DNA from: Paecilomyces variotii
Taxonomy: Eukaryota
Length of the DNA: 64,000 nucleotides
Strand: one strand, 5' to 3'
Assembly (NCBI GenBank): GCA_004022145.1
Contig: RCNU01000005.1
Shown here: positions 3,350-63,900 of the stretch, in pieces
Position numbering within the stretch: the first letter of the stretch is position 1
Layout: each line of letters begins with the position of its first letter
Position numbers and translations under genes: made by a program
The notes under the pieces: generated by a model
The model's input: the letters and a program-made list of their open reading frames with translations, nothing else
Databases searched by the model: none
Told to the model about the DNA's origin: nothing

Positions 3350-4129
3350 ATGTATCTCCGAGCCGCCCACGCGGAGTCATCTATCCCTATTCTGCACCAA
3401 CTCATCCGCGAGAATCCCCTAGGGATACTGACCACTGCAATCCCATCCGCCAACCACCCCACTATTCAATCGAGCCATATTCCATTCCTCCTCGACGTGC
3501 CAGAATCCGAGGATGGAACACATGGCATCCTGCGGGGCCACATAGCCAAGCAGAATCCACAAGCAAAAGCCCTCATGGAAGCGCTAGAAGCGAACTCACC
3601 AAACGAAGGGAGCCACCCACTCGAACTACCAGATGAAGTCCTAATTCTCTTCAACGGACCATACCATCACTACGTGACACCGAAATTCTACACGGAAACA
3701 AAGCCAAATACAGGAAAAGTCGTCCCGACATGGAACTATTCTGCCGCACAGGCATATGGCAAGATTCGCGTATATTGCAATTCGAAATCAGAGGAGACGA
3801 GTTTGTTTCTCCAGAAGCAGGTTGAGGAACTGAGTCAGCATGCAGAGATGTCTGTTATGGGGTATACGGGAGAAGGGGACAGGCCGGGTTCGTGGAAAGT
3901 GTCCGATGCGCCAGCGTCGTATGTGGAGCTGTTGAAGAAGAATATTATCGGGATTGAGATCAGGATCGATCGTCTGCAGGGGAAGTTTAAGATGAGTCAG
4001 GAGATGGGCCTGGGAGACCGACAGGGTGTAATTGAGGGGTTTGAGCAGTTGGGGACGGAGGTTGGGAAGGGGATTTCGAAGACTGTGAAGGAAAGGAGCG
4101 AGTTGCTGGATTCGAATTCGAAGAAGTAG
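3350..4129 (+). CDS. PAI2-type FMN-binding split-barrel protein (negative transcriptional regulator family)
   Basis: Intact 259-aa ORF: MYLRAAH, SHIPFLLD, LRGHIAKQNPQ, HYVTPKFY...KVVPTWNY, GKFKMSQE. Confidence 0.9.
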   Translation: MYLRAAHAESSIPILHQLIRENPLGILTTAIPSANHPTIQSSHIPFLLDVPESEDGTHGILRGHIAKQNPQAKALMEALEANSPNEGSHPLELPDEVLILFNGPYHHYVTPKFYTETKPNTGKVVPTWNYSAAQAYGKIRVYCNSKSEETSLFLQKQVEELSQHAEMSVMGYTGEGDRPGSWKVSDAPASYVELLKKNIIGIEIRIDRLQGKFKMSQEMGLGDRQGVIEGFEQLGTEVGKGISKTVKERSELLDSNSKK

Positions 4130-4564
4130 AGTTGAATTATTTCTGTATGCATAAGTTGATTATTCTTACTCATCCGCAAAGCGCATTGTAGCGGCTAGAT
4201 ACCTCTTAGATTCATTACCAGTGCCAGTCCTCCAAAGCTAAACCAGACACAACCAAGTTTCTACTCTGTTCAATAATAATAATAATAACCGACAATTAGA
4301 TACTGCACGTATTATACGCCATCAACTTTCCATTCTAGGAACTTGACGGGAGTGGGTCAGCGGCAAATGTCAAATTGCCTATTTAAGAAGTTAATGGGAG
4401 CGGGGCATTTGGTCCATATAACATATTATTATTCTCTATTACTTGGCTTGAGGTTGCTTCCAGTATTCTTATATATATAGCTAGAATCGTATAAATATAA
4501 GGGAAGGACTCTGAGTATTAATCCATCTCAAAGTGTTGTACCTGCTCCAACACCGATTCTTATA

Positions 4565-5964
4565 ATGCGTCCATCTATCTCAACCGCAATGCCACCAGCA
4601 AATAACTCTCCAGCTCATCCTGCCACGCGAGCTTTACATGCTGATGACCCCTTAAACCAAGTGACGGACGTTGCGCCTCCAATCCACTTGTCCACGACAT
4701 ATAGATATCCCAATGAACCGGAAGACTTGATCCCCAGCGCAGATCCTGTTGTACGTATATCCACCCATCCATCCATTCATTCATACGTATATACATACCT
4801 CCTTCCCTAGGAAAAGAACAGTAACTACCCCCTCCCTCTTCATATCCAGAACACTAACACAAAACAATACCCTCTAGGCCGAATTCACCGGAAAAAAACT
4901 ACATCTACTCCCGCGAATTCGCACCCAACACCACACGTTTCGAAACCATCCTCTCCTCCCTCCTCCACGGCCACACAATCAGCTACTCCTCCGGCCTCGC
5001 CGCCCTCCACGCGACCCTAACTCTCCTAAACCCTCACCACATCTCCCTCGGCGACGGGCTACCACGGCAGTCACGAAGTAAATCTCCGTAATATCCCGTC
5101 TATCAGGTCTACAGAAACCCCCCCCCCCCCCCTTGACTGTCCCGCCTCGAGCCTAGAAAAGGGGGGATGTAATCCTCCTCGAAACACCAATCAATCCGTT
5201 CGGAACGGCATTTAATATCGAGGAATATGCCATAAAGGCCCATTCGAGAGGAGCGTATCTTATTGTTGATAGCACGTTCGGTCCGCCCGGTCTGCAGGAT
5301 CCGTTTTTCTATGGGGTGCGGATATCGTTTTGCATTCATTCTGGATCGAAGTATTTCGGGGGGTCATAGCGATCTAGTTATTATGCGGGGTGGTTGCGAC
5401 GAAGAATGAAGAGTGGACAAAGAAAGACTCTTCTGGAAGATAGACTGGCTACCTAATTGGGAACGTCATGGGTAATCTGGAGGGAGATGGCTTGGTGTGC
5501 GGAGTCTGCGGACGTTGGAAATCCGTGTTCAGCGCGCGAGTCAGAATGCAGCGGAGTTAATCGCTTGGTTTTCAGCGTGGTTTGAATAATAATACAGAAT
5601 CAGAATCAGAATCAACACCTGCGAAGGGAAGTGAAGATTACTTCGTCCAGACTGTCGTCGAGAAAATCCACCACATCAGTCTTCAAGATGAGCCATGGAT
5701 CCGGAAACAGATGCCCAATTAATGGCTTCGGATCGCTCTTCTCTCTCGTTCTGCGCAACGAGGAGTTCGCTCGGCGTTTACCTATCTAGCAAATTGGCCT
5801 TTTTCCATCATGCGACTAGCCTTGGAGGTGTCGAGTCGTTGATCGAATGGCGGGCATTGTCTGATTCGAGAGTCGATCGAAAGCTGCTGAGGATTAGTGT
5901 GGGGTTGGAGAATTGGCTGGATTTGAAGAATGATCTTCTTGGAGCGTTGTCAAGGCTTTGGTAG
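4565..5964 (+). pseudogene. Cys/Met-metabolism PLP-dependent enzyme (cystathionine gamma-synthase/lyase family), multiply frameshifted
   Basis: Motifs DVAPPIHLSTTY, YIYSREFAPNTTRFE, ILLETPINP, LIVDSTFGPPGLQDP, HSGSKYFGGHSD (PLP lysine), RSLRTLEIRVQR, HATSLGGVESLIEWR and LLRISVGLE can be assembled only by removing about 16 small insertions. Intron at 4751-4877. Confidence 0.9.
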
Positions 5965-6786
5965 AGGAGTCAATTTAATAACTACTGAGATTAAATCGGA
6001 TCTAGATGGTGATTGTATGTACATACTTAACTACTGTACATAGTACTGTACATACATACAAAATAACCACAGCTTCCCTCACTCGATCATCCACCCATCC
6101 CATGAGCAAGCAATCAGGTCCCCACCTCTAAAAAAGCATTACAATATAAACTAGGAATATAAATAAGACGTATCACACAACCCAGGGCAAAAAAAAAAAA
6201 AAAAAAGAAAATATCTTCTGCTGCGTCTCCAAGTGGGTCTTGACAAAGCTATCGTCGATGTGGATGCAGACTAGCAAGCGGGCCAGGGGCAAAAACACAA
6301 CTGATCTTCCACTGTCCAGCCTCCTGGGATGTGGGCGTCTCCTTAACGGGGGCTAAATGGATCATCTGCAGAGAGAGAGCCACGAGACCCACAAGCTATT
6401 CTTAGGATGATCTTGATTTTGAGTTGGCGCAACGTTCTATCAGAACGTCTGTGTTACAATGTTTCACTATACCATGACTTGTTTAGATCCTTTGGCAGTA
6501 GATGCCTTTCGACGGGAGAATTCATAGAAAATATCCATCATTGAATCGCTAACGCTTAAGAAAAAATGTAGATAGATATACAAGGCCCATCAGAATGAAA
6601 TCATTAATCCAAATCGCCCAAAAAGCCTGCACCAGACCTTGCTGTCGCCAATAGAATCGAATCCATGATAGCCAATTCCAAAAAAGGTTCCCTCCTGAAG
6701 AATAGAATATATGCTGCCAGACTCATGGCAGCGAACTCCAAATACACCAAACGACCGTTTCCGATTTGGTGGAAGCAAAAAAGCAC

Positions 6787-9645
6787 TTAAACCGCCAGTC
6801 GTCGATCCCAGCCGTCGACCAGGCCAAAATCATCAATTTCGTCATCTGCCGCCGGGATGATGATCCCCTTGAAAGGATCCATCAGGTTCACGTTATCCTG
6901 GTGGTGCAGTCCCATATCATTAAGCGGCGACACCTCCTCGGCGCTTCCCAGACTCTCCTCCGAGTAGCTCAGAACACTCTGGGTGGTTGCCCCTTGGTTG
7001 TGCGGCAAGTCGCCACTGCTGGAAGACCAGGCTTCTGGCGACAAGCTGTGAGCCTCAGTGGCATGGGGCTGGATGCTCAAGGAATTGGGATGCTGTTGCT
7101 GAAATTCAGCAGTCAGAGAAGCAAAAGGCCCGTGGTCTTCACCGCATTCCTTTCCTCCGTAGATCCCGGTGAAAATATTGGAGTGGCCCTGCGCCATGTC
7201 ACTGACGACGAACTCCCAATCCGCCATACTGAGCGCAGACTTGGGAAGATCCGAGGAAGACATGGCGCGATGAGAGTCAGCGTTGAGAGGGAAGTACTCG
7301 AAGTTATTGTACTCTAGAGAAGGATCGTTGATTCGAGGCTTCTCTGCGCCCATCTGGCCCATGTGGTCCGTCTGCTGGGCGGGGAGGCTAGACCGGCTTG
7401 AAGAGCGAATGTGCCGGTGGGGTGTCGGAGGGCTGGCGTTGGTGATGGTAGCTCTGCGGGAGTGAGACTCCGCTCGTGCTGGCTGGAACGAGGGCCCGGA
7501 TACTGATCCACGAGACTTCAAGGGCTGGTACTGCTTCTTTGGAGACTTGGGCTTGAGAGATGACTCGCGCATCTCGGACGATTGCTTGGCGGCCGCTTCA
7601 CGCTTCCCACCATCGACAGAGATGAGCAGATTGGCAACCACGGTGAATTCAGCCGCGGCTCCGGCTGATTCTGATTCAAGCTGGTCGATGACGGTCGAGA
7701 GAAGCTTCTGGCTCTCCTTAGCAAGCTTGCTGTCGCGCTTCAGACCCATGTTCTGCCAAAGTAGGCCCAGTCCAGAGAGGAAGACCAGTTCCTTCCTGCT
7801 CATGCAGAAGGACAGGCTCATCCTCCTCTCATCAAGCAAGTCCAGAATTTGGATCATGTGCTTATTCGAGTCGGACAGAGCGAGGACAGAAGTGGAGGCA
7901 ATGGTAGCATCTCCAAAGCAGACCGCAGGGCGGTGGATCAGTGTTCGGATGTAATAATACACCATTGACTACGTAGAGTCAGTACCAGAGTCAACGACGA
8001 AGAATGATCGAGCTTACCAGAAGAGGAGACCGACTGCTGGTCACATTGGTGCTAGGCTTGTCCTGCGCGAACTCGAGTCTCAGGTGCGGAGGAAGGTTCT
8101 TGGACCACCCATCCAACTGCTCGGACAGCGCATGGAGCTTGGAGACTGGGATCTCATATCCAGCAGGCGAGGGATACAAGTCTTCCAGGACTTTGTTCAG
8201 AATCCGCGAAGCGGCAAACAATGCAAGGGCGCTGGACAGGCGTGTCGATTCGCCCGGAAGCGTAGGAAGGAAGCCAGTCTCCGTCACATTCTCGTCGTCC
8301 ACATCCGCAGGGTACTCGGTTCGGATATCGTCTTCACGCAGGAGCACGGGCAGGCCGGTCAGAGCAGCAGAGAAACTGTTGAGACTTGTTAGCTCCAATA
8401 AAAACATCGTTATTAGCGAAGAGAGAGCGTACCGATCCAGAACATATTGACACCAGAAGACCTTCTTTCTGGTCTCGCTGGTCAACGGGTTCATAGAGAA
8501 GCGTTTCTGACTCTGGTGGAGCCCCAGCTGGTGGACTAGTCCGACCGCAAGACCACGATACCGCGAGAGACCTTTGTAGTCCGCCTTAGCGGTGCAGTAC
8601 ATCTGGGCCAAGATGAGGCACTGAAGAGTGCCGATGGACACATCTCCGGACAGAGACTCCAGAGCGGGGTACCAGTTCTGTTCGAAGAACGCTGGATCCT
8701 GGTTGGTCCTCGACTGTTGCCACGGTCAGCATGCTCGACGGATCAAATCGAAGCGCTGTGGTATCTTACCCTCGCAGAAAGCGCAGCAATTCCAAAGATG
8801 AGGTTCAACTGAGCCGCGGCGTATTTGTTGCTGGACAGAGAGTCTGCATCAGTGAGGTAGTGATCGTAGGTCTTGAGAATCGTTGGTCGATGGACGACCG
8901 GATAGAGCGGCGCCCATTCTTGGAAGAAGATATTGATTAATTGGTCCGATACCAATCGAGGAGGAGTCTTGATGGTCTGATCGAGGACGGGGTAGGAGAT
9001 CATGGGCGGAGACGAAGTCAGCTCCTGCGTCGAGAAACTCGACGCGGACTGGCCGTTCTCCTCCAGTTTACTCGTGAACACATCTATCAACCACCCTCGT
9101 CAGCATCCTGTCACCCACAACTACTGCGTCATCCGTGGAGGAAGAGTATACATACCAACAAACGCTCTAGTGCTCGAGGGACCGGCAAATGGAGTGTCTG
9201 GTGTAGGGTTCCTCAGCAGCGACGGTGAATGCTGCACCCGAATGACACCTTCACCGCTGTGATTCGTTGTCGTCGTCTGTTTCTTCTCTTCTGCCGCCGG
9301 TGATTTCAACGCCGTCTTGTGTGGATGGGGGGAAAATGAATGTATGCGGGAGAGCACATCGATCTTCTCGTCCTTCTCGTCGAGTAATCCCTTCAGCTCC
9401 CGTACTTCGGCCTCCAACGTCCGTACCCGATCCTCCAGAGATTCTGTGTATCCTCGCGGGAAGGCGCGACGGCTCAGCTTGTCGCTGGTCTTGCACTCGA
9501 AACCCACATTGGCACATTGCGAGCAGCATGGTCGAATGCCATCACATCGAATCTTCTTGCTTCGACAACGATCACAGGCCTGGGCAATGCGGCTCTGGGA
9601 GCTGCTGCCCACCTTGATGACTTTCATCGGTAGAATTCCCGGCAT
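6787..9645 (-). CDS. facB: Acetate-utilisation Zn2Cys6 transcription factor FacB (Cat8/Acu-15 family), multi-exon
   Basis: The N-terminus [13 protein letters not shown]...[57 protein letters not shown] is the characteristic FacB/Cat8 sequence. Middle-homology region: [49 protein letters not shown]. Confidence 0.93.
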
Positions 9646-19282: not shown

Positions 19283-21848
19283 TAGGGATGGTGAAAAGTG
19301 GAAATTTAGATTTAATTTCATGAAAAGTTGAAATTTCGCCCTTTTTTTTCCTTTCCAGTTTCACTGCGCATAGACCAATTAGTGTTCCACGCTATACTTA
19401 AATAGGATAGGTAAGCGACCGATCTGGCCAATCAGTTGGTGTAAATGCTTGTATTACCCTATTTTATAATTTGTTAGAGCTATTTTACCTGGTAATTAGT
19501 AATTTAAGCAGAAGCTATTGATTTTATATATATCTATGTTTATTTTGAATTTCTATTGGCATACTATACCCTAAAATTATTAAAAATGGGTAGAATTGGC
19601 TTTAGCAGGGGTAAACCCACTAATTCTATACTCCTAGATGCTTTTAATTATATTTGTGAGGATTTAAAAGTATATTTAATTAAATATGCCGTTATTTACT
19701 AGTTTAACTGATCTTTTTAAACATTATTTATGTTGCCGCTATTATAATAATAAAACTGTTTAAAATACTACCTATAAAAAGAAATACCTACGCAGCTGCC
19801 TAAACTGGCTTAAATCTAGATTTTTAGGTCCTCCTAGAATTGTTCAGACTCTGCTAACTAAAATAATTAGACCTCCTTTATTGAAGTATTAGTTAGATCA
19901 GAAATATAGAATATTGATTTTTATAGGTGCCAGACCCTTCTCCCTATATATGGATTTTATGATGTTAGACTTTATTACTAGTCTAGATCCTAGCTATAAA
20001 CCTCCCGACTATTATATAATAGGAGATATAATTTTTAAAGATTATTATGAGCTAATTGCTAAAGAGGTTAATAAGCTGCTATAAGTAAGCAGCTATTTGA
20101 ATATTATCGCCGATAAGACTACTAATATACACAATTAATGAATCATTAACCTATTTTTAATTATTGGGAAATACTCTTTCTATTACTGCAGCTAGGATAT
20201 TAGATCCTAAATAATAAACGCGGAGACTGTTGCGAATTAAGTATATAATAGGATAAAATTAATCCTAGGCAATAATCTTAGCTAGAAAAGAATCAACTCC
20301 TTCGCTAGTAACACCTGCAATATTATGTAATTAATATAGATTACTCTATAGAGGATAGGAGGATTAAATACTATTTTTTTTATTTTATATAATTCTTATG
20401 GGCTTTAACTCCTAATAAAGGATATCTTTAAGCTGTTAAAGATTATAGAGGTCTTTAATACTGTAAAGAAGATTGTTAGATTTTTTTAAAGCTCCCCTAA
20501 ATAACACGCGATTTTTTAAGATCTCTAGCTTAAGATCTATAAAAAGCGACTATTCTTAGTATTAAGTGTTATTACTCGCTGGGGTTTATAGTATAGAATG
20601 CTTTATTCAATCTACTATAGTAATGAGGCGATTAGATAGTAGGCAAAGGAATTTATTATATTTCCCCCTATAAAATTAGAGATTCTATTGCCGTAGTTCT
20701 AGGAGTTATTAGTAGATTTAATACTGCTTATTAAGCTAATCTATAATATCCAACTAGCTTCAGAGAATATAGAGTTAAATATTTTTATAGTAAGTACTAA
20801 AGTAGTCCTAATTATAGCTTTATTAATAATTTAGGTAGTATAGCAATAGATAAAAATATATTAATACCTTATATAATAAACCGGTTCCTTGCAGTCCTTT
20901 ACTTATAAAATCAGCTTATACCTAAACTCTAGATAGCACAGCCGATTAAATAAATAGCTTACTGGGCTTCACTAGGCTGCTTATTATCTAGATCCTCAGA
21001 CCTATTATAAGAGTATTAAGGATTATAATAATACTGTCTATTGTGCGCTTAGTTAATATATTAGTAAGCAAATAGTATTTAATTTTTACTGCTTTAGGGG
21101 GTGAACTAAAGCTTTTTATAATAGAGCTAATTGTTAGAAATAACCTATTATTGAAGCCTTTTAGAGAGTTATAATATAGACCCTATTTTATTGCTTTTAT
21201 ATCCTATTAACCTATATAATCTATTACTAGACTCCGCTAACACTAGATCTTGCAAATTTTATTATATAGCTATTTAAAACAACTGCCAACTTTATTACCT
21301 TTAAATAATCTTTCTCTACTATAAACCTCCAATATATAAAGCTTTAAAATAGGCTTAACCCTGATTATGTAGATAAGCTTATTTATATCTATATAAACTC
21401 GCGGGTGCTACAGTAGATAAAGGGGGAAGATATAAAATACTATATTAAAGGAGATATTAAAGCAGAATTATTAGCTATAGAGGATCAGGAGATAGAGAAA
21501 GCCTAATTTGCAGAGGGACTGCTAGGCAAAGCTATTAAAGAACCCCTACCGGCTAACAGCCGATTAATGGGATGATTGCTTAATGCTTAAATATAGCAGT
21601 AAGATCTAGGAGGTTTAATACCTTTACTAGCTTTAAAAAGCGATATTTCCTAAGAGTTGAATAGCTTTAAATTAATCTTGTTTTTTCTTTTTGCTACTTA
21701 TAGACTAGCGGTAAAATATTAGGTAGGTCAGATTTACCATACTAATTTATTAGCGTATTTTAAAATGTTAGGACACTTTTTCGTTACGCAATTTAAATCC
21801 AAAATGTCGGAAATTTCTGACATTTTGAAATTTCACTGACCTACGCTA
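19283..21848 (+). mobile_element. Full-length (2566 bp) hAT-superfamily DNA transposon, inactivated by RIP-type mutation
   Basis: Exact 8-bp TSD TCATCTAC at 19275-19282 and 21849-21856. Ends TAGGGATGGT... and ...ACCTACGCTA are imperfect TIRs that both start with TAG. The body is very AT-rich and TpA-rich and carries transposase remnants. Confidence 0.9.
19586..21420 (+). pseudogene. hAT transposase relic (many TAA/TAG stops); end coordinate approximate
   Basis: Remnants GARPFSL, LNIIADKTTN, NSFASNTCN, (C)NSYGL*LLIKDI (CxxH-like region), LSVITRWG, AAYYLDP, and a C-terminal dimerisation-like segment SFSTINLQ..L*NRLNPDYVDKLIYIYINSRVL. Confidence 0.85.
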
Positions 21849-22033
21849 TCATCTACATACTATCTAGAGTACTTACTTAGACTGCTATTATGTAGATCAT
21901 TCCCTTCTCGCTTCCTGCAATGCATCGGGTATGCATCGGGTAGGAGATAAGATAGGAGATTCAGTGGGATGGTGGGTGTAGTTAGTTAACTAGATAGTCT
22001 AATGCTTTTATTCATAGTGAGTAGATAGTTAAC

Positions 22034-22090
<57 letters not shown>
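22034..22090. repeat. (TAG)19 microsatellite
   Basis: Perfect 57-bp trinucleotide array. Confidence 0.97.
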
Positions 22091-22092
<2 letters not shown>

Positions 22093-29339: not shown

Positions 29340-30842
29340 ATGGCAGCCACTGGAGATTCTATTATTACACTCAAGCAGCGTACGAGTAAACTATCCGATT
29401 CCGTCAAGTATGAGTCCATGAAACTATCAACGGCCGATGAACCTCTCAAGGAAGCTACAGGCGACAGCAAGCATGTTCTCATCATTGGCGGCGGTGTCAG
29501 TGGACTACTCGTAGCATGGATGCTCCTTGATAAAGGCTTCCGGGTGACCATCCTCGCCCGGGAATGGGCTTGGACCAAAGACTTTCAGGGATCTCGCATT
29601 ACCTCGCAAATTGCCGCGGCCCTGTGGGAGATGCCACCAGGTGGGTGCGGGCACAGAGAGATCGAATCACCGGGAAAGGGCTGGGCTAACGTTCAGCATT
29701 ATCGAGAATGGGCCTTGGACAGCTATGATTTCTACACCGAGCTCGCAAGTATTTCCAATAATCACGAAAATGGAGGGCGCTCCTTTGGTCTTAAAGTCGC
29801 AGATCTTCACCAGTTCTTCTATTATAATGTGGTTGAAGATCCCAAAGACAAGAAGTCGCAGATATATGAGCACTATGATAAGTTTTGTGCCGTTAAAGAC
29901 GAGATACTGCTCAAACGTGTTATGAAAGACAAGGGGTTAATGGGTGACACCATCGAAAACTATACTTACAAGGATAAGACCGCCATTGCAACTAAATTCG
30001 GGTCGGACCTGATCAATTTAAGCCTAGGAGGGAAAGACTTCACAAGCGGTTATTCTCATCCAGCTCCAATCATAAACACGGACAAGGCGTTGGCATACCT
30101 GATGGCCCTAGTCAAGAACAAGGGAGCCACGCTTGAGACGCGAGAGATCAAGGATCTTTACACTACTGGGGAAGAGTTGTTGAAAGATTTTGATGCGCAT
30201 GTTATTGTCAACGCCACCGGTCTCGGTGCCAGAGAACTGGTCAACGACAAAGATGTGTATCCTGTTCGGGGCGCTATTCGACGAGTCGAAAACACTCGCA
30301 ACGGCAAGTTCCGTCACCTCGCTGATGCGTATTTGGTCCCAGCGCAAATTGGACCTTCGAAACTACCCACCAAAACGGTGTTCATCGTACCGCGCAACGA
30401 TGATATCCTCTATGTGGGATCCATAATCCAACCGAACAACGGCCAATTGAACTTGGGTCCAGAGTCGCCTGAGGTCCAGCAGATGTGGAATCGAGCAGGA
30501 GATTTCATGCCGACCTTGCATCATGCGGGCTTCAGGAAAGACTTTCCATTTGCTCAGGGCTTGCGGCCATTTACCAAGAACAATGTCAAGGTGCGAGCAG
30601 ATGAGAAAGTCACATTTCCCCTCGTGCACAACTACGGCCATGGAGGGTCCGGATGGACTCTGGGGATCGGAACTGCTCGCTCTGCTGTATATATCGTGGA
30701 GCGGCTTCTGAAAGAGACGGCAGAAGTGAAGGAGAAAGCGGCAAAGATCAACGAAGATCTATATAGCCCCCGCCCGAAACCAGACCTCAACGTAAGGAGG
30801 AGTAGACATCGATCCTCAATCCATCAGAAAGCAAAGCTCTAG
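29340..30842 (+). CDS. FAD-dependent D-amino-acid oxidase-family protein, intronless, with C-terminal PTS1
   Basis: Rossmann motif VLIIGGGVSGL, TSQIAAALW, VIVNATGLGAREL, VYPVRG, GLRP, VHNYGHGGSGWT; terminal tripeptide AKL. Confidence 0.9.
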   Translation: MAATGDSIITLKQRTSKLSDSVKYESMKLSTADEPLKEATGDSKHVLIIGGGVSGLLVAWMLLDKGFRVTILAREWAWTKDFQGSRITSQIAAALWEMPPGGCGHREIESPGKGWANVQHYREWALDSYDFYTELASISNNHENGGRSFGLKVADLHQFFYYNVVEDPKDKKSQIYEHYDKFCAVKDEILLKRVMKDKGLMGDTIENYTYKDKTAIATKFGSDLINLSLGGKDFTSGYSHPAPIINTDKALAYLMALVKNKGATLETREIKDLYTTGEELLKDFDAHVIVNATGLGARELVNDKDVYPVRGAIRRVENTRNGKFRHLADAYLVPAQIGPSKLPTKTVFIVPRNDDILYVGSIIQPNNGQLNLGPESPEVQQMWNRAGDFMPTLHHAGFRKDFPFAQGLRPFTKNNVKVRADEKVTFPLVHNYGHGGSGWTLGIGTARSAVYIVERLLKETAEVKEKAAKINEDLYSPRPKPDLNVRRSRHRSSIHQKAKL

Positions 30843-49973: not shown

Positions 49974-51455
49974 TCACGTTTCCAAACGCTTATAAACATG
50001 AATCTGAAACCTCATATCCTCCAACCCAGCCCCCTCTCCAACAGCGTACCTCAACTTCGCTGCATCTCTTCGAAACCAGCGCGAATCCTGCGAGAGAACC
50101 TTATCCCACTTCCCTGCCGCAACAGAAAGAAGGGTATGATCCAGAAGGAATTTCATAGGATAGTTTCTCTGCTGTGGTTTATCTGGCTCTGACGACGATT
50201 CGGACTCGGGTTTAGTTGTTGAACTCTTGCTTTTCCCCAAAGTAACAGTAGAGTAACTGCCAGGACTATCAACCACGAGGAGAACAGTGCCTGGTTCGAG
50301 AAGGTCGGTGATTCGAAGGAGAAATGCGGTCGTTTTGGCCATGGATACGGAGAATAGTTCGTTTAATGTGAACATGAGTGTGACGAGGATGGTGTTTGAG
50401 TTGTTGTCTTTGTGAAGGATGCTTCGCAACTCAGCGTCGGAAAGAGTGAGGATGTCTGATTTCTGGAATGAGATGGAGAATAAGCTCCCTCTGTGAGAAT
50501 CGTCCTGAGGGGGTAGTAGCGGTGCTGGATGGGCCTTTGAGCCCGGGATATCAGACGATCTGATAGTGGAGGATAAGCGGTTCACGACAGAAGACCAATC
50601 TGCGATATCGACTGCTGTGATTGAGATGTTGGGAATAGAAGAAACCTCGACTTGTAGAGACCTGCCTGGGTCTTCTTTCGTCAAGGTCATTTCTCCAACA
50701 GCGCTGGATATGGACTGTGCATCATCATCACCACCACCACCACCACCTTCCCCTCCATCTTTCTCAGCCTCAGTCCCATTACCCTGCCTTCCCAACTTCC
50801 CTCGCTCCTCCTCATCCATCAAATCCCTCCAAACACACGCAAGAGCAACAATCTCCGCTCCCGCGCCCCCTCCTATACACAGCACATGCCCATCCCTCCT
50901 CCTCCTCCTCCTCTTGACCACCACTTCACCCCCACTCATCCCCTCATCATCAACCTCTCTCTTCTTCTTGAACTCAAGAATCCCCGATCCCACAACCCCC
51001 CTAAAAATCCCCGCATACCCTAACGCCCTACTCGCGCTCCATCGTAGCGCATAAGCTCTCAATAACTCCTCATTCGCATCGGTGAACGCAGAGTCGAAAT
51101 CTCGATTATATAAATGCGATTTGATGGTTTGGATGAGTGTTTTCATATCCAATTCTTCTTCTTTTTCTTCTCTTCCGTTTTCTTGTCCAGCATCATAACT
51201 TGAACGAAGTAATCCAGCTTTGAAAATATTCAAAAGTAACTGCTGTAATGAAATGGGGATTGTGATAGAGAGGTCTATTTTCTCTTCTTCCTTTTCGTTT
51301 CCGAGTCGTCGTTGTTGTTGTCTTTCTCCTTCTTGATGGTTTGCTCTGCGGGATGTCGTTGGAGTTTGCTTCTTCTGCTGCTTCTGCTTCCCTTCTTTGT
51401 TATTTGTATTAGAAGAGGTTCCTTTTCGAGGTGGGGCACGGCGTGGTGGACCCAT
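49974..51455 (-). CDS. 25S rRNA uridine-N3 methyltransferase, Bmt6/DUF3115-like
   Basis: IKSHLYNRDF..AF, AYALRWSASRALGY, SAM-binding VLCIGGGAGAE, VDIADWS, TLMFTLNELF, LLVVDSPGSYS, YPMKFLLD, LEDMRFQIHVY. Confidence 0.85.
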   Translation of the reverse strand: MGPPRRAPPRKGTSSNTNNKEGKQKQQKKQTPTTSRRANHQEGERQQQRRLGNEKEEEKIDLSITIPISLQQLLLNIFKAGLLRSSYDAGQENGREEKEEELDMKTLIQTIKSHLYNRDFDSAFTDANEELLRAYALRWSASRALGYAGIFRGVVGSGILEFKKKREVDDEGMSGGEVVVKRRRRRRDGHVLCIGGGAGAEIVALACVWRDLMDEEERGKLGRQGNGTEAEKDGGEGGGGGGDDDAQSISSAVGEMTLTKEDPGRSLQVEVSSIPNISITAVDIADWSSVVNRLSSTIRSSDIPGSKAHPAPLLPPQDDSHRGSLFSISFQKSDILTLSDAELRSILHKDNNSNTILVTLMFTLNELFSVSMAKTTAFLLRITDLLEPGTVLLVVDSPGSYSTVTLGKSKSSTTKPESESSSEPDKPQQRNYPMKFLLDHTLLSVAAGKWDKVLSQDSRWFRRDAAKLRYAVGEGAGLEDMRFQIHVYKRLET

Positions 51456-58200: not shown

Positions 58201-60434
58201 TGTACTATCAATGCACAGTACTCGTAACACTCTATCTATAATTATCCAAGCCTTTCCTCTCTCTTCCTTGACTTGATGCTATGTAGTCGACTAACGGCAA
58301 GTTAACCTGTCCCTTTCCTTATCCGTATAATTCGTATTGACCATCTAAGTTAACTACGTACAGGTCTACGACAAATACGAAGTAGACTAGACTACGAAGT
58401 ACACTAACTCCCCTCCCCTCTAGTCTCGTCTAACCTCCAGCGCCGTCTCTCCATCTCCCCCAGATGGCCCATGTGCCGTCAGATCGACCGTCTTTTCCTC
58501 ACTCGACGAACAAATGGGGGCGCCTCGTACGTCAGAGCGGTTGGAGTCTGTTGTTTCACCCTGTGTTACGACCACCTGTTGATCAGGGAACGGTGCCGGT
58601 TGCGCAATCGACGATCATGCTCTGTCGCGGAGGGAGGGGAAACGGAAGAGAGAGGGGGGGGGTGTCTTTGCTCTAGATAGCTCTCCCGTTCTTTAGTTAG
58701 TGACGCGGGATTTTACTTGGATAGCATACGGGGTACGGATACACAGTGCACTAAGTACTAGTTACACAGTTCAGATTCACCTATGACCTGTCTATCTTAT
58801 TCTATCGCCCCGTCTATCCCGTCCTGATTTTCTATTTTTGAAATCAAGATACTCCCGACCCGGGCGGACTCCGGAGAAATAAGCAAATAAGCATGAAATC
58901 ATGAAAGCGGGATGACACGAGATCATCATATGAGATGAACCTACCTATCCGCCAACCAGTCGTGAGAATAATGATCAACTAACTAATCAGCCTTCCGTTC
59001 CGCACGGACAGTGTTCAACTTGTCCAGTCTCCAAGGCATCTCACCAGATAGCCTTCGAGGGCCTGATGTTCTCCATATCTTAGTCTACACAGCCCATCAC
59101 GAATATCCAATCCTCCGCGTTGCAGAAAGAACAACAAAAGCCGCTGCGGTTCATTCTGTGCCATGTGACTTGAAACCCAGGTTTCCATTTCCACGACTGC
59201 AGAATCTTGAGGTGGAATGTACTGTAATTTGGTAGCTGGCTCTGTCTATTCATCGTATCCTCTTCCTATTCCTCCCCCATTCGCATGGTGAAGTCCTCCC
59301 GGTCCGTACATTCTTTCGTATTCACGCTGGGAAGGGAGTATTCATTCCTGTCCAACCCCGATTTCTTATCTGCCCTCCTCCTCGGGCATAAAAAGATGTC
59401 TCTGTCGCCTTCCTCTACTCTTCATTATATACTGGATTCGAATTTGATATACAGTTACGTGATTGCGGATAGCGCTCCGCCGCAGGTACCTAGTATAACT
59501 TCATAATTTGTACCATCCCGTAATAGCCGGCGAAAGAGCCCCTCTATTCGAAGACAAGCATTTCTTCTTTTTGCGACCTGACCTTTCCACACCCTGATCG
59601 CGACTCTAAGTGTACAATCTTTTTAGACGACTGGTATAAAGTCTAGAGGCTGGCGGGTGAAACAGCCCTAGGTTCTCTAAAGCCAGGTGCATTGGATCAG
59701 ATTCTTGATGATATTCTTGATAAAATCGGTTCCAAAACTACTGCACAAGAACTGCGACAACGATCCATTATAGATGGATTCCGCGATGGCCCCCATATCT
59801 CTGGCTGGTGGGCCAAATGGGATACGGATGGTGGGATAACACCGTGTCTTGCTCGCGCAGTATGGGAGCAATCCATACCATCTGATCGATAAAGAGGGCA
59901 TGCATCCCGAGCAAAACCCAGACACGCTCATGGACTACACCATTATGCACGTATCTGAGCTGGCGATAACGAGATTTAAGGATATAGACCTTAGAGAGGC
60001 ACTGAACCAACAGATACAGGAAGCACTAACCGACCCACCCTAAATTTTTCCATATAGATATATTTTGAATACAAGACCTCTATTTTGGATTCAGGATACC
60101 TTTTGATTTTAATCATGCCATCTTTCTCTCCCGCCAGAAACTTTTCAAGAATCACGCCTGTCGACATATCGCTCGCAAAAAGAAGCAAAAGCGAGCATTC
60201 GAGCTGGATAATGAACCAACTACGATTCATACGATACCGCAAATTTTCTGATGTCCCACCGCACACGTGGTGATAGAGTCAAAGAGTACAATCCTACCAG
60301 ACCATGTAGTCCCATATAAGGAAAGGCATTTTACATCTGAGTATGTTCAGCCATTGTCTCATGTTGCTATGGAAGTCGTTCGATTTTCTTTCTGATACTC
60401 TATTCCATTTAGTTACATTAATCTTATCTCCGAT

Positions 60435-60960
60435 ATGCAAGAAAACGGTCTTCTCTATGCAGAGGATCACGACGGACGCAAGAGACTGTGCATCCCGCAA
60501 GCGGTATTGCCCGAAATTCTACGGCTTGCCCACGGTGACGCCGGTCACCCAGACTTCGAACGAACTCTCAAGCGCTTGGACGGCCTCATCATCTCACGTT
60601 GCAGCAAAAATCTCCGCAATTATATCAAATACTGTCCACAATGCATACTCAACAAGACGAGACGACACAAGCCTTACGGCTCACTGCAGCCTATACTCAC
60701 GCCACCAATACCCTTCCATACAATCACAATTGACTACATTCTGGGCCTCCCCGAATCTGGTCAACTTGATTGTTGTATGTCTGTCACGAGTAAATTTACT
60801 AAACGCGTGACCTTCATCCCAGGCGCAGCCATATGGACCGCTGGACAATGGGCAGAAGCATTACTTGAACGGCTTCGCCTAGGAGATTGGGGTATCCCGC
60901 GAGCTATTATTTCGGATCGCGATAGAAAGTTCTTATCAGAACTATGGCGTTCGCTTTTCC
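60435..60960 (+). mobile_element. Truncated Ty3/Gypsy LTR-retrotransposon integrase fragment
   Basis: RLCIP...AHGDAGH...CPQC (HHCC zinc finger), RHKPYGSLQPI..PPIPFHTITIDYILGLP, KFTKRVTFIPG, WGIPRAIISDRDRKFLSELW. Similarity stops before the third catalytic residue region; no RT, RNase H or LTR found. Confidence 0.9.
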
Positions 60961-63900
60961 GAGAGGACGTAGATCTACAGGTTCAAACCGAATTACACAC
61001 ATACAATTCCACTTTATCTCTCCAAGGGCGAAAGAAGTGGTAGGGAGACGTACTTTCGAACAATGCGAATCTGTCTACAATCTGTTTGATGATGTATTTG
61101 AATCCTCTGACTACATTACCGAGCTGCGTTGTCTGGCATGCTAAATCAACGATTGCGAATCACCGGACCCCAATTCTATACGACTGCGCCTATTGATGGA
61201 ATAATATTGATCGAAGAGCTGATTTTTCGAGATGACATCGACATTCTTTACGACCCTCGAGTTTCTGCCCGCTGTCGTCGCATTGAGTGGCCGACCGCTG
61301 CCATCTCGATTCTTAGTTAATAATCCGAGTTCTGACTCCAGTATCAGACGCATGTTGTTTCTAACCGCTACAATGTCACGACTAGATCCCACGAGCTCTT
61401 TCGTGCCTATATGTTGGAGAGTAAGCGTGCGACGAGAAAGACAATCAAGATGGTCACCTTTCAGTCCAATAGTCAATAGATCAAGTATAAGCATAGATCC
61501 GATATTTTGTGAACTCCTGAAAGATTCCAATTATGCAGGCGAAGATCTCCATGGGAACCCAACTGTCGTTACGGCGGCCTATTGGGAGTTTTCTAAACAG
61601 TCTCAAAATGGAAGCACATACTGTCTGAATTGGTAGAGTGCGTAGATCATTGTTTTTTTTTTTTTTTTTTTTTCTGTATCAGATTCTGAGTACCCTTTTC
61701 TGTTCTGTTTTGTTTCGTTATCCTCTCCATCAGTACAATACAAGACACAATACGATGCACAAAACGTATGCAAGACATTGACCCATTTACTACTCCTGAT
61801 GCCAAGGGAAATTTCTTTTTGTAGATTATTACGCCTCACTAGGTAGTACTATGTATCATTCGTGGTGAAACCGGAAAAGGGTCTGAATCTCCGGAAGATC
61901 CGGAGTTGTGGTTCCGAAAAAGCACTTCGTAGAGAATGGAGACCAATTCAACTTATGCAGGTCTTGTTCTAATTTATCCAAAACAAATAATTAACACGCG
62001 AGCGTCCACTACTCCGTACATGGTCGTCACTACGTGCGACAGACAATAATAAGGCTGACTGACGGGCTCAGCTCCGTGATGTCTTCGATTCCAAATCTGA
62101 TCCAGCAGAGCTGAGGTCGAACAGGCTGCCACTAGCCAGCGAGGACTGTCCGCGCGGAACATAGAACCATGGATACGCCCGAATAGGCAATCGATAGTTA
62201 ACTACTCTGTATGGTACACCAGCTAGCCACCACGATGGATCTCTCCCAGCCACTTTCTTCTTTTCCGTTGTGGAACCTTGACAATCCACCCGGATTCCGG
62301 GACTGAGTACGGAGTACGTATGGTAGAATTATTTCCTCGTACCTTGTGTCCCTTTTCGAGAAGCCTCGTTTCCGCCACATCGGAGACTCGGCAGATCCAC
62401 CGTGCATGGGGCGATCCAGTGTACTCCGTATCGCGGAAGCGGCGTGGGACAGCATAGTCACGGATAGTCCGTACCATAATCGTGTGGCTGGTGGTGATCG
62501 AGCCAAGTCAATAATCAACATCTCGATCCATGGTTGGGTATAAATGAGTATCAAATTTCCGTTACCGAGCTAGCAATCCCGCCGGCTGCGTATGCACGTC
62601 GTAATTAACACTTGAACAATCGGAGCTGGAGCCGTGTTGCTTTTCCCCCGAGGCCATGCAGGATGGATGCGATGCGCACGTTGCGCTGTCGGGTAGGGAT
62701 TCTGATATGTTTATTTTGGAGTTTCAGCTCATATACAAGGTACAGCCTGTTTGCTGTCCAGGAAACGCAGCGAGGAAGCATCGTGCTAGTCAGCCTGCGC
62801 GATGCAAAGTAGATCATCTAAGACACATAACCAACTAGTTAGTCACTGTATCGCATGACACATAGGATTAGGACCACTTTGAACTGATCAATTCGCTAGT
62901 GTCGACTTCCTGTATGCGATCGACATCCGACTTGGCGATCTTCTTTTTCGCGTCAACGGCAAGACCACCACACATGTCATTCACAGTATCCACTGAGAAG
63001 AATACATGTTAACAGACTATCAGATTCAATCAAGCTGGCAGCCAAGGAGCGATCCACGCAAGGAGGTGACGGAACAGAAACTGTACGGAGTATACCCGGG
63101 CCCGCAAGATACAACCCGTAGACGCGATCGATCTTGTATCCGCAAGTTCCCCCGCTTGTCTTGCCGTGCAGCCGTTCTGACTTCCCATGGAACAGTTCTC
63201 GCTGTGCAGTGTGGAGTGTCCGCAGAACAAACCCGCCTTACATGTTCTCGTAGTTCTTCCAAGCACGAAGTCGATAGAGCTGTCCCGTTTCGATAACTAT
63301 AAGCAGCACGAACCTGTCCCTTATGCAAGGAGGTTCGTGTCTTACTCGTGATGTCGCGTTTTTGTCGGCTATTATTATTGATAAAGAAGTAAACAATGCC
63401 GGGGCATTGTCGTTTCAGGTGGCAACAAGAGGATGTATTTGGATATGAAGAGGGTCAATTGTCCGCTTATCTGGGCTGCGATTATTGCTTCTATGAAAAT
63501 GAGGGCGTTCCTGGGCCGATTGTGGTCACTACCTCACTGTTACCCTGGTGAACAGTAGTGGTTGTTCCCGGTGGGATAGGAACCTCCAGATGCACCGTGT
63601 TGTTGGCAGCAGAGGACATCCCGTGTCTGCCATAATTTAGTAACTAGCAGGAATAGTCTCGATAAGCAGGATACTTAAGTATACTCACGTGAAGAACTTC
63701 CCCGCCATGCTCGCAACCTTTGTTTTGCGTCGAAACAAGATCTTTGCCCAAAACGATGACTGAACAGCCTAAGCGTAGAAAGAGAGATAGTGCAAAGGAC
63801 CAACTGCTGCTCTGTATACTATCCTGTAGCTGCTAGCACGGCCACATCTAAATCCACGAAGACGGCCCTGAGGATACCGACCACTCCATGTGCTAGGAAG

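Follow-up and report, generated by a model that had tools for sequence, protein, structure and literature searches.

How does a gene come to be destroyed by small insertions and by nothing else? The question is raised by a locus in a 64,000-nucleotide (nt) stretch of the Paecilomyces variotii genome (GCA_004022145.1, contig RCNU01000005.1), hereafter the window, whose positions serve as coordinates. The locus holds a gene of the Cys/Met pyridoxal phosphate-dependent (trans-sulfuration) family, Pfam PF01053, annotated in Eurotiales as cystathionine gamma-synthase. This gene is dispensable and died recently, and P. variotii still carries both intact and broken alleles of it. Among its lesions is a TA-anchored class of 4-nt insertions, young in the pseudogene and old on all five contigs sampled, which is the part of our results for which no earlier description was found.

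Lesions and alleles of the PF01053 gene

An open 70-codon piece of the region has its closest matches among P. variotii proteins of PF01053, and the family profile is matched both by open pieces of exon 2 and by the intact allele P0001 (profile positions 2–381). The gene consists of two exons (4589–4750 and 4878–5978) around an intron whose donor GT at 4751 lines up with orthologue introns of ~50–70 nt. The intron stretch 4751–4811, 61 nt here, measures 108 nt in the sequence X7 and 83 nt in X12.

4589–4750, + strand: exon 1, frame intact, no substitution relative to P0123
4751–4877, + strand: intron of 127 nt, enlarged by micro-repeats that include TA-CG-TA-TA-TA-CA-TA at 4784–4797
4878–5978, + strand: exon 2, pseudogenised by 16 frameshifting insertions, with no deletion and no nonsense substitution

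A frameshift-aware alignment of window positions 4879–5973 with three intact P. variotii proteins (P0001, P0123 and P0005) returned the same set each time, namely 16 frameshifting insertions and one in-frame expansion. The intact P. variotii alleles are ~98% identical to the window gene. There was no internal deletion, as the two deletion-type lines in the alignments are the chosen alignment ends, and omitting the 16 inserted stretches yields 350 codons with no stop. The lesions are as follows.

4892–4898, + strand: one A gained at 4893, in an A run first lengthened by a C>A substitution (X7 and X12 have C at 4894 and one base fewer at 4895)
5056–5082, + strand: one G gained at 5056 (GG to GGG) and one A at 5081 (AA to AAA); an X3 contig over 4545–5088 is identical
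5118–5132, + strand: run of 15 C (C15), eight more than in the intact frame, grown stepwise (five fewer in X7); no contig bridges its exact length
5161–5166, + strand: one G gained at 5162, in a G run arising from A>G at 5165 (X7 and X12 have A at 5165 and one base fewer at 5161)
5304–5308, + strand: TT gained in a T run, with a one-base intermediate in X7
5333–5340, + strand: CATT-CATT, an exact de novo 4-nt duplication by alignment and orthologue DNA
5358–5363, + strand: one G gained in a G run, absent from X7 and X12
5375–5380, + strand: TA to TA-GT-TA (four nt gained), the four letters at 5375 being missing in X7 and X12; candidate footprint of an AC...GT-ended pogo/Fot1 element
5418–5427, + strand: AAAG-AAAG, an exact de novo 4-nt duplication, placed by the aligner as AAGA at 5420
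5450–5456, + strand: TA to TA-CC-TA plus one A (five nt gained) at 5451, where the otherwise intact allele P0006 stops (...EDRLAT*); the intact codons GCT ATT are taken indirectly from protein and orthologue DNA
5484–5487, + strand: GA-GA, an exact 2-nt duplication (GA gained at 5486), also in P0002 (...NLEGDGL) and absent from X7
5569–5572, + strand: one T gained in a T run, from the protein alignment
5585–5617, + strand: AAT and 6-nt repeats expanded in frame, to lengths that vary among alleles with an intact frame (21 nt more than P0001, 3 nt more than P0123)
5716–5723, + strand: CAAT to CAAT-TAAT (four nt gained at 5717), an imperfect duplication whose stop (...KQMPN*) is shared by P0122, P0004 and P0124; absent from X7 and X12
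5783–5788, + strand: TA to TA-TC-TA (four nt gained at 5784); the intact codons, CCT AGC, are deduced
5948–5949, + strand: TG gained (two nt at 5948–5950), the sixteenth frameshift, absent from X7 and X12

A preliminary description made from the letters alone had claimed that exon 2 was wrecked by small insertions without deletion or stop-making substitution, and the comparison with three intact proteins bears this out. Of the about 16 insertions it listed, however, the two 2-nt gains placed at 5419–5432 are a single AAAG duplication, and the event at 5948–5950 lies beyond its range. The in-frame expansions it saw at 5585–5613 are present, but they are shared with frame-intact stretches of P0122 and P0123. 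By class, the 17 events comprise eight homopolymer-run gains, one exact 2-nt duplication, one imperfect 2-nt gain, the in-frame region and six insertions of 4–5 nt. These six divide into two exact duplications (CATT and AAAG), one imperfect one (CAAT-TAAT) and three of the form TA-NN-TA.

The insertions are gains, because the DNA of all three syntenic orthologues examined (L049, L035 and L036) and of an intact paralogue on another contig (L002) is free of every one of them. They are also real. Contigs of the public run X2 are identical to the window, with no other letter and no gap, over 4130–4980, 5119–6177 (beginning within the C run) and 6271–6790. Those of run X3 cover 4545–5088 (no mismatch, no gap), 5141–5762 (one mismatch, no gap) and 5765–5969 (neither). 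Together the two runs, which belong to two studies and either of which could be the window's own source sample, reproduce every lesion save the length of the C15 run. X3 covers genes and skips intergenic DNA, retains the intron and each insertion it covers, and shows no corrected frame; that it represents RNA is a guess. Some lesions moreover occur singly in other strains. An assembly error is thus refuted for all but the exact length of the C run, and we attach a negligible probability to a local sequencing or assembly error or to correction of the frame in the transcript, for which the unbridged C15 length and the guessed nature of X3 would speak.

Intact alleles of the gene are P0001, P0121, P0123 and P0005. 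The broken ones differ in where they fail: P0006 stops at the 5451 lesion, the one at 5486 is found in P0002, and P0122, P0004 and P0124 stop at 5717, each without the lesions upstream. Since the 5486 and 5717 lesions occur in all four combinations among alleles, recombination or recurrence is required. A search for shorter alleles returned only P0004 above 80% identity among the 120 listed. The comparisons with X7 and X12 use the differences listed for them (40 of 120 substitutions and 12 of 50 indels). At least seven frameshifts are absent from X7, in which the C and T runs are intermediate, and gap arithmetic (34 letters left out, 25 of them listed) implies that, of the 20 letters making up the seven unlisted lesions, it shares 11 or more. 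X7 is also a mosaic, near-identical to the window upstream of the intron (3 differences in 621 base pairs, bp) and 2.6% different downstream (51 in 1,979 bp). X12 is 65 nt shorter across 4812–6790, as expected of an intact allele.

Few substitutions accompany these insertions. Twelve amino-acid differences are listed relative to P0123, of which three are placement artefacts at lesions or the repeat, leaving nine over both branches. Scaled to all sites this means at most about 12 substitutions since the death of the gene against 16 frameshifts, or about 1.3 or more insertions per substitution. The window differs from both X7 and X12 by 15 exon-2 substitutions (eight synonymous and seven not, as read by hand), and the lack of nonsense changes is unremarkable, with ~0.6 expected for ~15 substitutions at 4% each. 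The absence of deletions among 17 events has P = 8e-6 if insertions and deletions are equally frequent and P = 0.077 at the published ratio of Schizosaccharomyces pombe. The evidence supports a real, neutrally decaying gene in which all lesions are insertions. Unlike other members of PF01053 the window copy cannot encode a protein. With intact homologues in synteny and lesions seen at the DNA level (the C15 length being unbridged), it is a polymorphic unitary pseudogene.

Upstream lies a neighbour whose place before the PF01053 gene is kept in three other fungi.

3350–4129, + strand: gene for a flavin mononucleotide (FMN)-binding protein of PAI2 type (Pfam PF04299), intact, with the same strong C/A-to-G/T strand skew

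The flanking genes had been named PAI2 and facB in the preliminary description; their Pfam classes are confirmed, and the gene names themselves are not. PAI2 had also been called free of such lesions. The gene is indeed intact here, but its length varies in frame among strains, that is, PAI2 alleles show in-frame indels.

The TA-NN-TA pattern in the gene and in the genome

At 5375, 5451 and 5784 a pre-existing TA has been duplicated and two other bases stand between the copies. The duplication at 5375 is seen directly from X7 and X12, while those at 5451 and 5784 are deduced from proteins and orthologue DNA. Three such cases among six 4–5-nt insertions have P = 0.021 against random tetramers in a post hoc comparison. 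A further array lies just beyond the gene.

6016–6033, no strand assigned: mixed-core array TA-TG-TA-CA-TA-CT-TA-AC-TA, immediately 3' of the PF01053 gene

The same arrangement was surveyed as TA..TA pairs at a period of 4 in 84,167 bp of non-coding DNA, from five contigs, that is free of repeat-induced point mutation (RIP). Observed over expected values were 1.58, 1.79, 1.62, 1.75 and 1.50 on the five contigs and 1.66 when pooled, compared with 0.98–1.11 at other TA..TA spacings in the same DNA. Control fungal DNA (35,352 bp, a small set centred on one gene family) had a period-4 value of 1.06, and a block mutated by RIP one of 0.93. Eight other dinucleotide classes gave 0.88–1.14 at this period, and AA was raised at all spacings above 0.

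Cores that share nothing with their flanks are as enriched (206 against 145 expected) as those that share one base (356 against 246), which is not what decay of perfect duplications would give. The flank-unrelated class is led by AC/GT (38 against 17) and CC/GG (41 against 18), and the strongest enrichment of any class is that of perfect tandems with a TA in them (184 against 77). Arrays with different cores in register are likewise in excess: 10 with at least four cores against 0.4 expected, and 12 with three cores against 2.3, while the controls held 0 against 0.1 and 2 against 0.7. No such excess was seen at periods 5 or 6. AC/GT is the commonest core in the mixed arrays (49). Adjacent cores are frequently identical or reverse-complementary, the latter at 7.6 times expectation against 2.5 for unrelated cores, and reverse-complement neighbours are what the two ends of one transposon family would give. 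The implied rate of TA-NN-TA formation is modest, at ~0.013 events per substitution.

Two candidate sources were tried and rejected. Scars of hAT-type hairpins (P nucleotides) should be palindromic, and the single-core palindromic class reached 1.40-fold against 1.37-fold for unrelated cores, with no gene lesion palindromic to its flank. As for RIP acting on the junction mismatches, CAAT-TAAT alone is compatible with CpA to TpA change.

Sources of the insertions

We give an even chance of being right to the explanation that polymerase slippage and transposon excision footprints together made the lesions. After loss of selection on a dispensable PF01053 gene, the gene would have recorded two insertion processes. 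Slippage with an insertion bias like that of fission yeast may account for about 11 of the 17 events, that is, the one- and two-base run gains, the C15 run and the short repeats; some runs were first created by substitution (as at 4894 and 5165) and would then have slipped. The second process, whose pattern is visible in the sequence, doubles a TA with two other bases left in between, and it would explain three of the six 4–5-nt insertions as well as the marks in non-coding euchromatin. Pogo/Fot1-type elements (Tc1/mariner superfamily) could insert at TA, duplicate it and later excise, with end-joining keeping two bases of the element end, so that a family with AC...GT ends would leave TA-AC-TA or TA-GT-TA. 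Such a footprint coincides with the top genomic core class and with the 5375 lesion. Repeat visits to one TA would probably yield the mixed-core arrays and, more speculatively, error-prone repair near such breaks might raise the local insertion excess.

Resident elements fit this proposal in part. The genome contains 16 DDE_1 matches, of which nine have AC...GT ends between TA copies (two RIP-altered), two have CT...AG ends, one a GC end, about one or two AT ends, and three were assigned no end. The GT filler at 5375 thus equals the end of nine of the 16 loci, while the CC and TC fillers match no element found. One AC...GT-type candidate stands out: L142:787–2664 (G000:C18, ~64,070–65,950) is a 1,874-bp pogo/Fot1-type element with TA on both sides, inverted repeats identical in 30 of 30 bases and a 557-codon open transposase predicted to carry DDE_1 and HTH_Tnp_Tc5. 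It is the sole DDE_1 match without stops, in a genome with RIP. For Tc1/mariner elements, published work describes duplication of TA and, after end-joining, short footprints flanked by the TA duplication (PMC2874221, PMC7913693). The duplicated target, the short filler, the net gain of four and a leading filler equal to resident pogo/Fot1 ends are shared with the present case. Here, in contrast, the marks are known from sequence statistics (~3 per kb of non-coding DNA) and form mixed-core arrays, excision itself is only inferred, and two common cores lack a known donor.

Several points weigh against this explanation. Among the DDE_1 loci and miniatures no CC/GG- or GA/TC-ended element was found (Tc1/DDE_3-type elements were not searched), yet these cores rank second and joint third in frequency and account for two of the three TA-NN-TA lesions of the pseudogene. 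In the four public runs compared, no element was seen at any of the three TA sites, no long insertion being reported. We found no published footprint of a fungal ACGT-ended element, the older Fot1 footprint literature lying largely outside the search, so the 2-nt footprint length rests on analogy. Three events in one gene compare with 0.17 expected from the non-coding density (P = 0.0007 under a rough steady-state model), and a local hotspot or a recent burst must therefore be added. The TA-NN-TA idea arose after the lesions had been viewed, and each such lesion can also be read as a 4-nt duplication with one mismatch. CATT, AAAG and CAAT-TAAT lack a target TA and must have arisen in some other way.

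Three miniature elements have CG ends. Two copies of a 413-bp miniature (G000:C12 ~1,105,377–1,105,793 and G000:C1 ~2,037,949–2,038,365) have CGGAG ends next to TA and the same 30-base terminal repeats, and a 101-bp element on C23 has CGGCA next to TA. The word TACTCCGTA, which is TA followed by the 5-base end of the CGGAG miniature and TA and could be a longer footprint, occurs 33 times in 794 kb of P. variotii DNA and 10 times in 427 kb of controls, as raw counts.

The preliminary description had attributed the duplications to filled-in staggered breaks such as those of trapped topoisomerase II (Top2). With a TA preference added, the idea would be that breaks with 4-nt overhangs, from trapped Top2 or a TA-preferring nuclease, are filled in and end-joined by a misinserting Pol X, giving all 4–5-nt and some one-base events. 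We consider this possible but rather improbable. Trapped Top2 in yeast gives mostly 4-bp, AT-rich duplications at hotspots, with 7.6-fold more one-base insertions (bioRxiv 2020.05.03.075358), and our lesions resemble these in the 4-nt size mode (5 of 17 events), the AT-rich inserts (15 of 20 bases A or T), the extra bases in short runs and the recurring sites. A single mechanism would then serve for all six 4–5-nt events, including the exact CATT and AAAG duplications; perfect TA-containing tandems are the most enriched genomic class, and two Pol X genes and TDP1 are present. Yet the yeast events are duplications, whereas only two of our six are exact, four are imperfect although young against ~1% background divergence, and three are TA-NN-TA. 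Flank-independent cores are as enriched as the one-mismatch class, and TA alone among dinucleotides is enriched at period 4, while the yeast Discussion describes an AT preference with no flanking consensus (bioRxiv 2020.05.03.075358). TOP2 retains the amino acids that align with yeast K720 and R1128, so no TOP2 lesion is seen at the two positions checked.

A TA-specific cut-and-fill process in open chromatin is unlikely in our judgement. A DDE transposase or another nuclease would cut TA without stable integration, and repair would add TA and two variable bases. If so, it would explain the CC/GG and GA/TC cores that match no element end, and it would act as a permanent insertion mutator of the whole species, building mixed-core arrays and destroying genes that are dispensable.

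The locus might instead be a hot region for meiotic breaks, with error-prone repair synthesis driving most of the insertions, the strand skew and the mosaic alleles; we regard this as quite doubtful. In the PF01053 gene and its FMN-binding neighbour the 5' half is strongly enriched in C/A and the 3' half in G/T, fourfold sites included, and among 41 A/C-to-G/T skew peaks in 654 kb the centre of the gene ranks fourth and PAI2 sixth. Fourfold-site asymmetry is 0.84 against 0.22 in the intact paralogue. The switch of X7 at the intron and the four combinations of the 5486 and 5717 lesions also fit. Of 20 sequences looked up for alleles, 11 were present in the collection, and 8 clusters were usable. 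In-frame indel regions numbered 22 per 152 variable sites in six skew-peak genes (two picked by skew before their alleles were viewed), whereas four genes outside the peaks had 4 per 138 (P = 0.0016), one GNAT region with a differing start annotation being excluded. Minority insertions and deletions numbered 14:5 in skew-peak and 0:3 in non-peak genes by a hand tally (P = 0.036). However, just 10 genes are compared, low-complexity content is a confounder and the evidence is indirect. The skew was rejected as a species-specific mark, as 17 of 27 scored homologues in other fungi reach an asymmetry of at least 0.7 and are intact. It was rejected too as a driver of micro-duplication density, since neither the TA-NN-TA excess (rho 0.03, P = 0.70) nor 4–6-mer tandem density (rho 0.10; rho -0.01) tracks it.

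Published break repair offers partial parallels. Human meiotic break hotspots show an insertion bias and a C>N/A>N strand asymmetry (PMC7615360), and in grasses mutagenic repair is described around DNA-transposon excisions (PMC5023962). A local excess of small indels near repaired breaks is common to both; our locus resembles them in its excess of small indels, and the human hotspots also in insertion bias and strand asymmetry. The skew here differs in being common in other fungi and in not tracking TA-NN-TA. Because of the skew's distribution and its independence of TA-NN-TA, break-repair heat remains a secondary hypothesis. The skewed frames lie at the following places.

window 3350–4129, 4878–5978 and 49977–51455; L117, L034, L106, L112 and L033: strong C/A-to-G/T skew

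About 5% of long frames have such a C/A-rich 5' and G/T-rich 3' third-position skew, which appears to reset at introns and is common in other fungi. A literature search found no published account of exon-scale skew resets.

Finally, nothing special may be at work: in a haploid fungus with S. pombe-like slippage and a small sample, the 4-nt events would be micro-slippage and the TA pattern compositional or regulatory. The S. pombe-ratio probability given above allows this, about 11 events are run or short-repeat gains, the non-coding 4–6-mer tandem excess (2.55 per kb) lies between the extremes seen at 21 control loci (-0.27 and 3.22), and RIP-mutated repeats are also indel-rich per transversion (44 per 80). 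Slippage, however, copies a unit and cannot make in-register arrays of different cores (10 against 0.4), the TA signal is not present in control fungi, and the 4–5-nt class is 6 of 17 in the pseudogene against 1 of 44 in repeat pairs, which are neither independent nor polarised (P = 0.0013). This reading is very doubtful.

If the slippage-and-footprint explanation is right, cut-and-paste transposons limited by RIP have still left ~3 scars per kb of non-coding euchromatin, or tens of thousands genome-wide when extrapolated from 84 kb. Past transposition could then be counted from scars after the elements have vanished, and TA-based microsatellites would gain an origin other than slippage. If the cores instead come from a nuclease and end-joining, they would represent a naturally occurring equivalent of the Top2 duplication signature. 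P. variotii is transformable and crossable and many of its strains are sequenced, and for this reason the footprint and nuclease readings are both directly testable in it.

Insertion bias, repair genes and further observations

Neutral decay had been presented as dominated by substitutions and deletions, which is not true of all fungi. Mutation accumulation in S. pombe gave 288 insertions, 47 deletions and 326 substitutions (PMC4704713), so insertions there outnumber deletions about sixfold and are almost as common as substitutions, as in our pseudogene. The insertion ratio of the pseudogene is within the known fungal range, and insertion-only decay alone is less surprising given fission yeast. 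In the results described in that report the bias is discussed for microsatellite slippage, and a TA-anchored 4-nt class is not among them. Quiescence was rejected as a model, since quiescent S. pombe is deletion-biased (PMC5734874).

The proposal of an insertion-biased mutator in this lineage fares unevenly. An insertion process does extend beyond the gene, given the TA-NN-TA excess on five of five contigs, but a lineage-wide Top2-type mutator is not shown. Repair genes were inspected at matched domains, where subtle alleles could escape: six MutS matches (MutS_V; one just a 108-bp piece), three MutL, two Pol X, TOP2, MRE11 (in a 774-codon open frame) and two TDP1-family loci. MutS and MutL homologues are present, with no sign of mismatch-repair loss in these domains, and the lesion in TOP2, MutS, MutL or Pol X that the mutator idea predicts was not seen there either. 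K720 of yeast TOP2 is a position we take to be relevant; the check covered K720 and R1128. The intron after ...EKRK of TOP2 (L015:4678–4732) seems, by eye, to have a GC donor.

Fifteen copy pairs of RIP-mutated repeats (14,729 columns) held 1,724 transitions, 80 transversions and 44 indels, 29 of one base. Among the 44 indels, from pairs that share copies and are unpolarised, no 3–5-nt tandem duplication was found, and the 4-nt class is thus not uniform across the genome. No second pseudogene emerged from large-family searches, in which the best candidates were scored, from a Pfam scan of 87 of the 694 window frames or from inspection of the longest frames under 47 skew peaks. A frameshift detector working ab initio recovered 2 of the 16 lesions as a positive control, with many false calls, and was dropped. 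Of two metagenome scans the first returned no locus and the second 51 loci of other fungi, none near-identical; eight near-duplicate loci were removed from the control sets. Deletions do occur in P. variotii, because the broken alleles of the DAO gene, read by hand, show one +1 and one net -1 change and the Cu-fist and 879-amino-acid genes have minority deletions only.

A search outside supplements found no published account of indel bias or TA-NN-TA arrays in P. variotii, and a term search found the word indel absent from PMC6300479 and PMC10055108. In the part of PMC10104507 considered, footprints are mentioned only as absent for Starships.

The window also holds a long (TAG)n microsatellite at 22,037–22,092, adjoining a RIP-mutated element. 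The RIP-mutated DNA transposon at 19,290–21,850, presumably hAT-like from its end motif, served as neutral control and has 12 further genome matches that include 317-bp derivatives. An integrase zinc-finger fragment (PF17921) at 60,310–61,040 is a retrotransposon remnant. At L018:584–1474 a DCG1-like racemase is annotated in P0305 and P0308 with a shifted tail, suggesting a lesion masked by an invented intron. A flavin adenine dinucleotide-dependent oxidoreductase at 29340–30842 is intact in the window. Its strain alleles diverge by ~5% and several are broken (split, stopping early or starting late), while 11 alleles show no in-frame indel. An X3 contig covering 6533–6790, where the convergent Zn2Cys6 gene has its 3' end, reaches a depth of 1,533, compared with 8–56 over the pseudogene, contig depth being a poor measure of expression.

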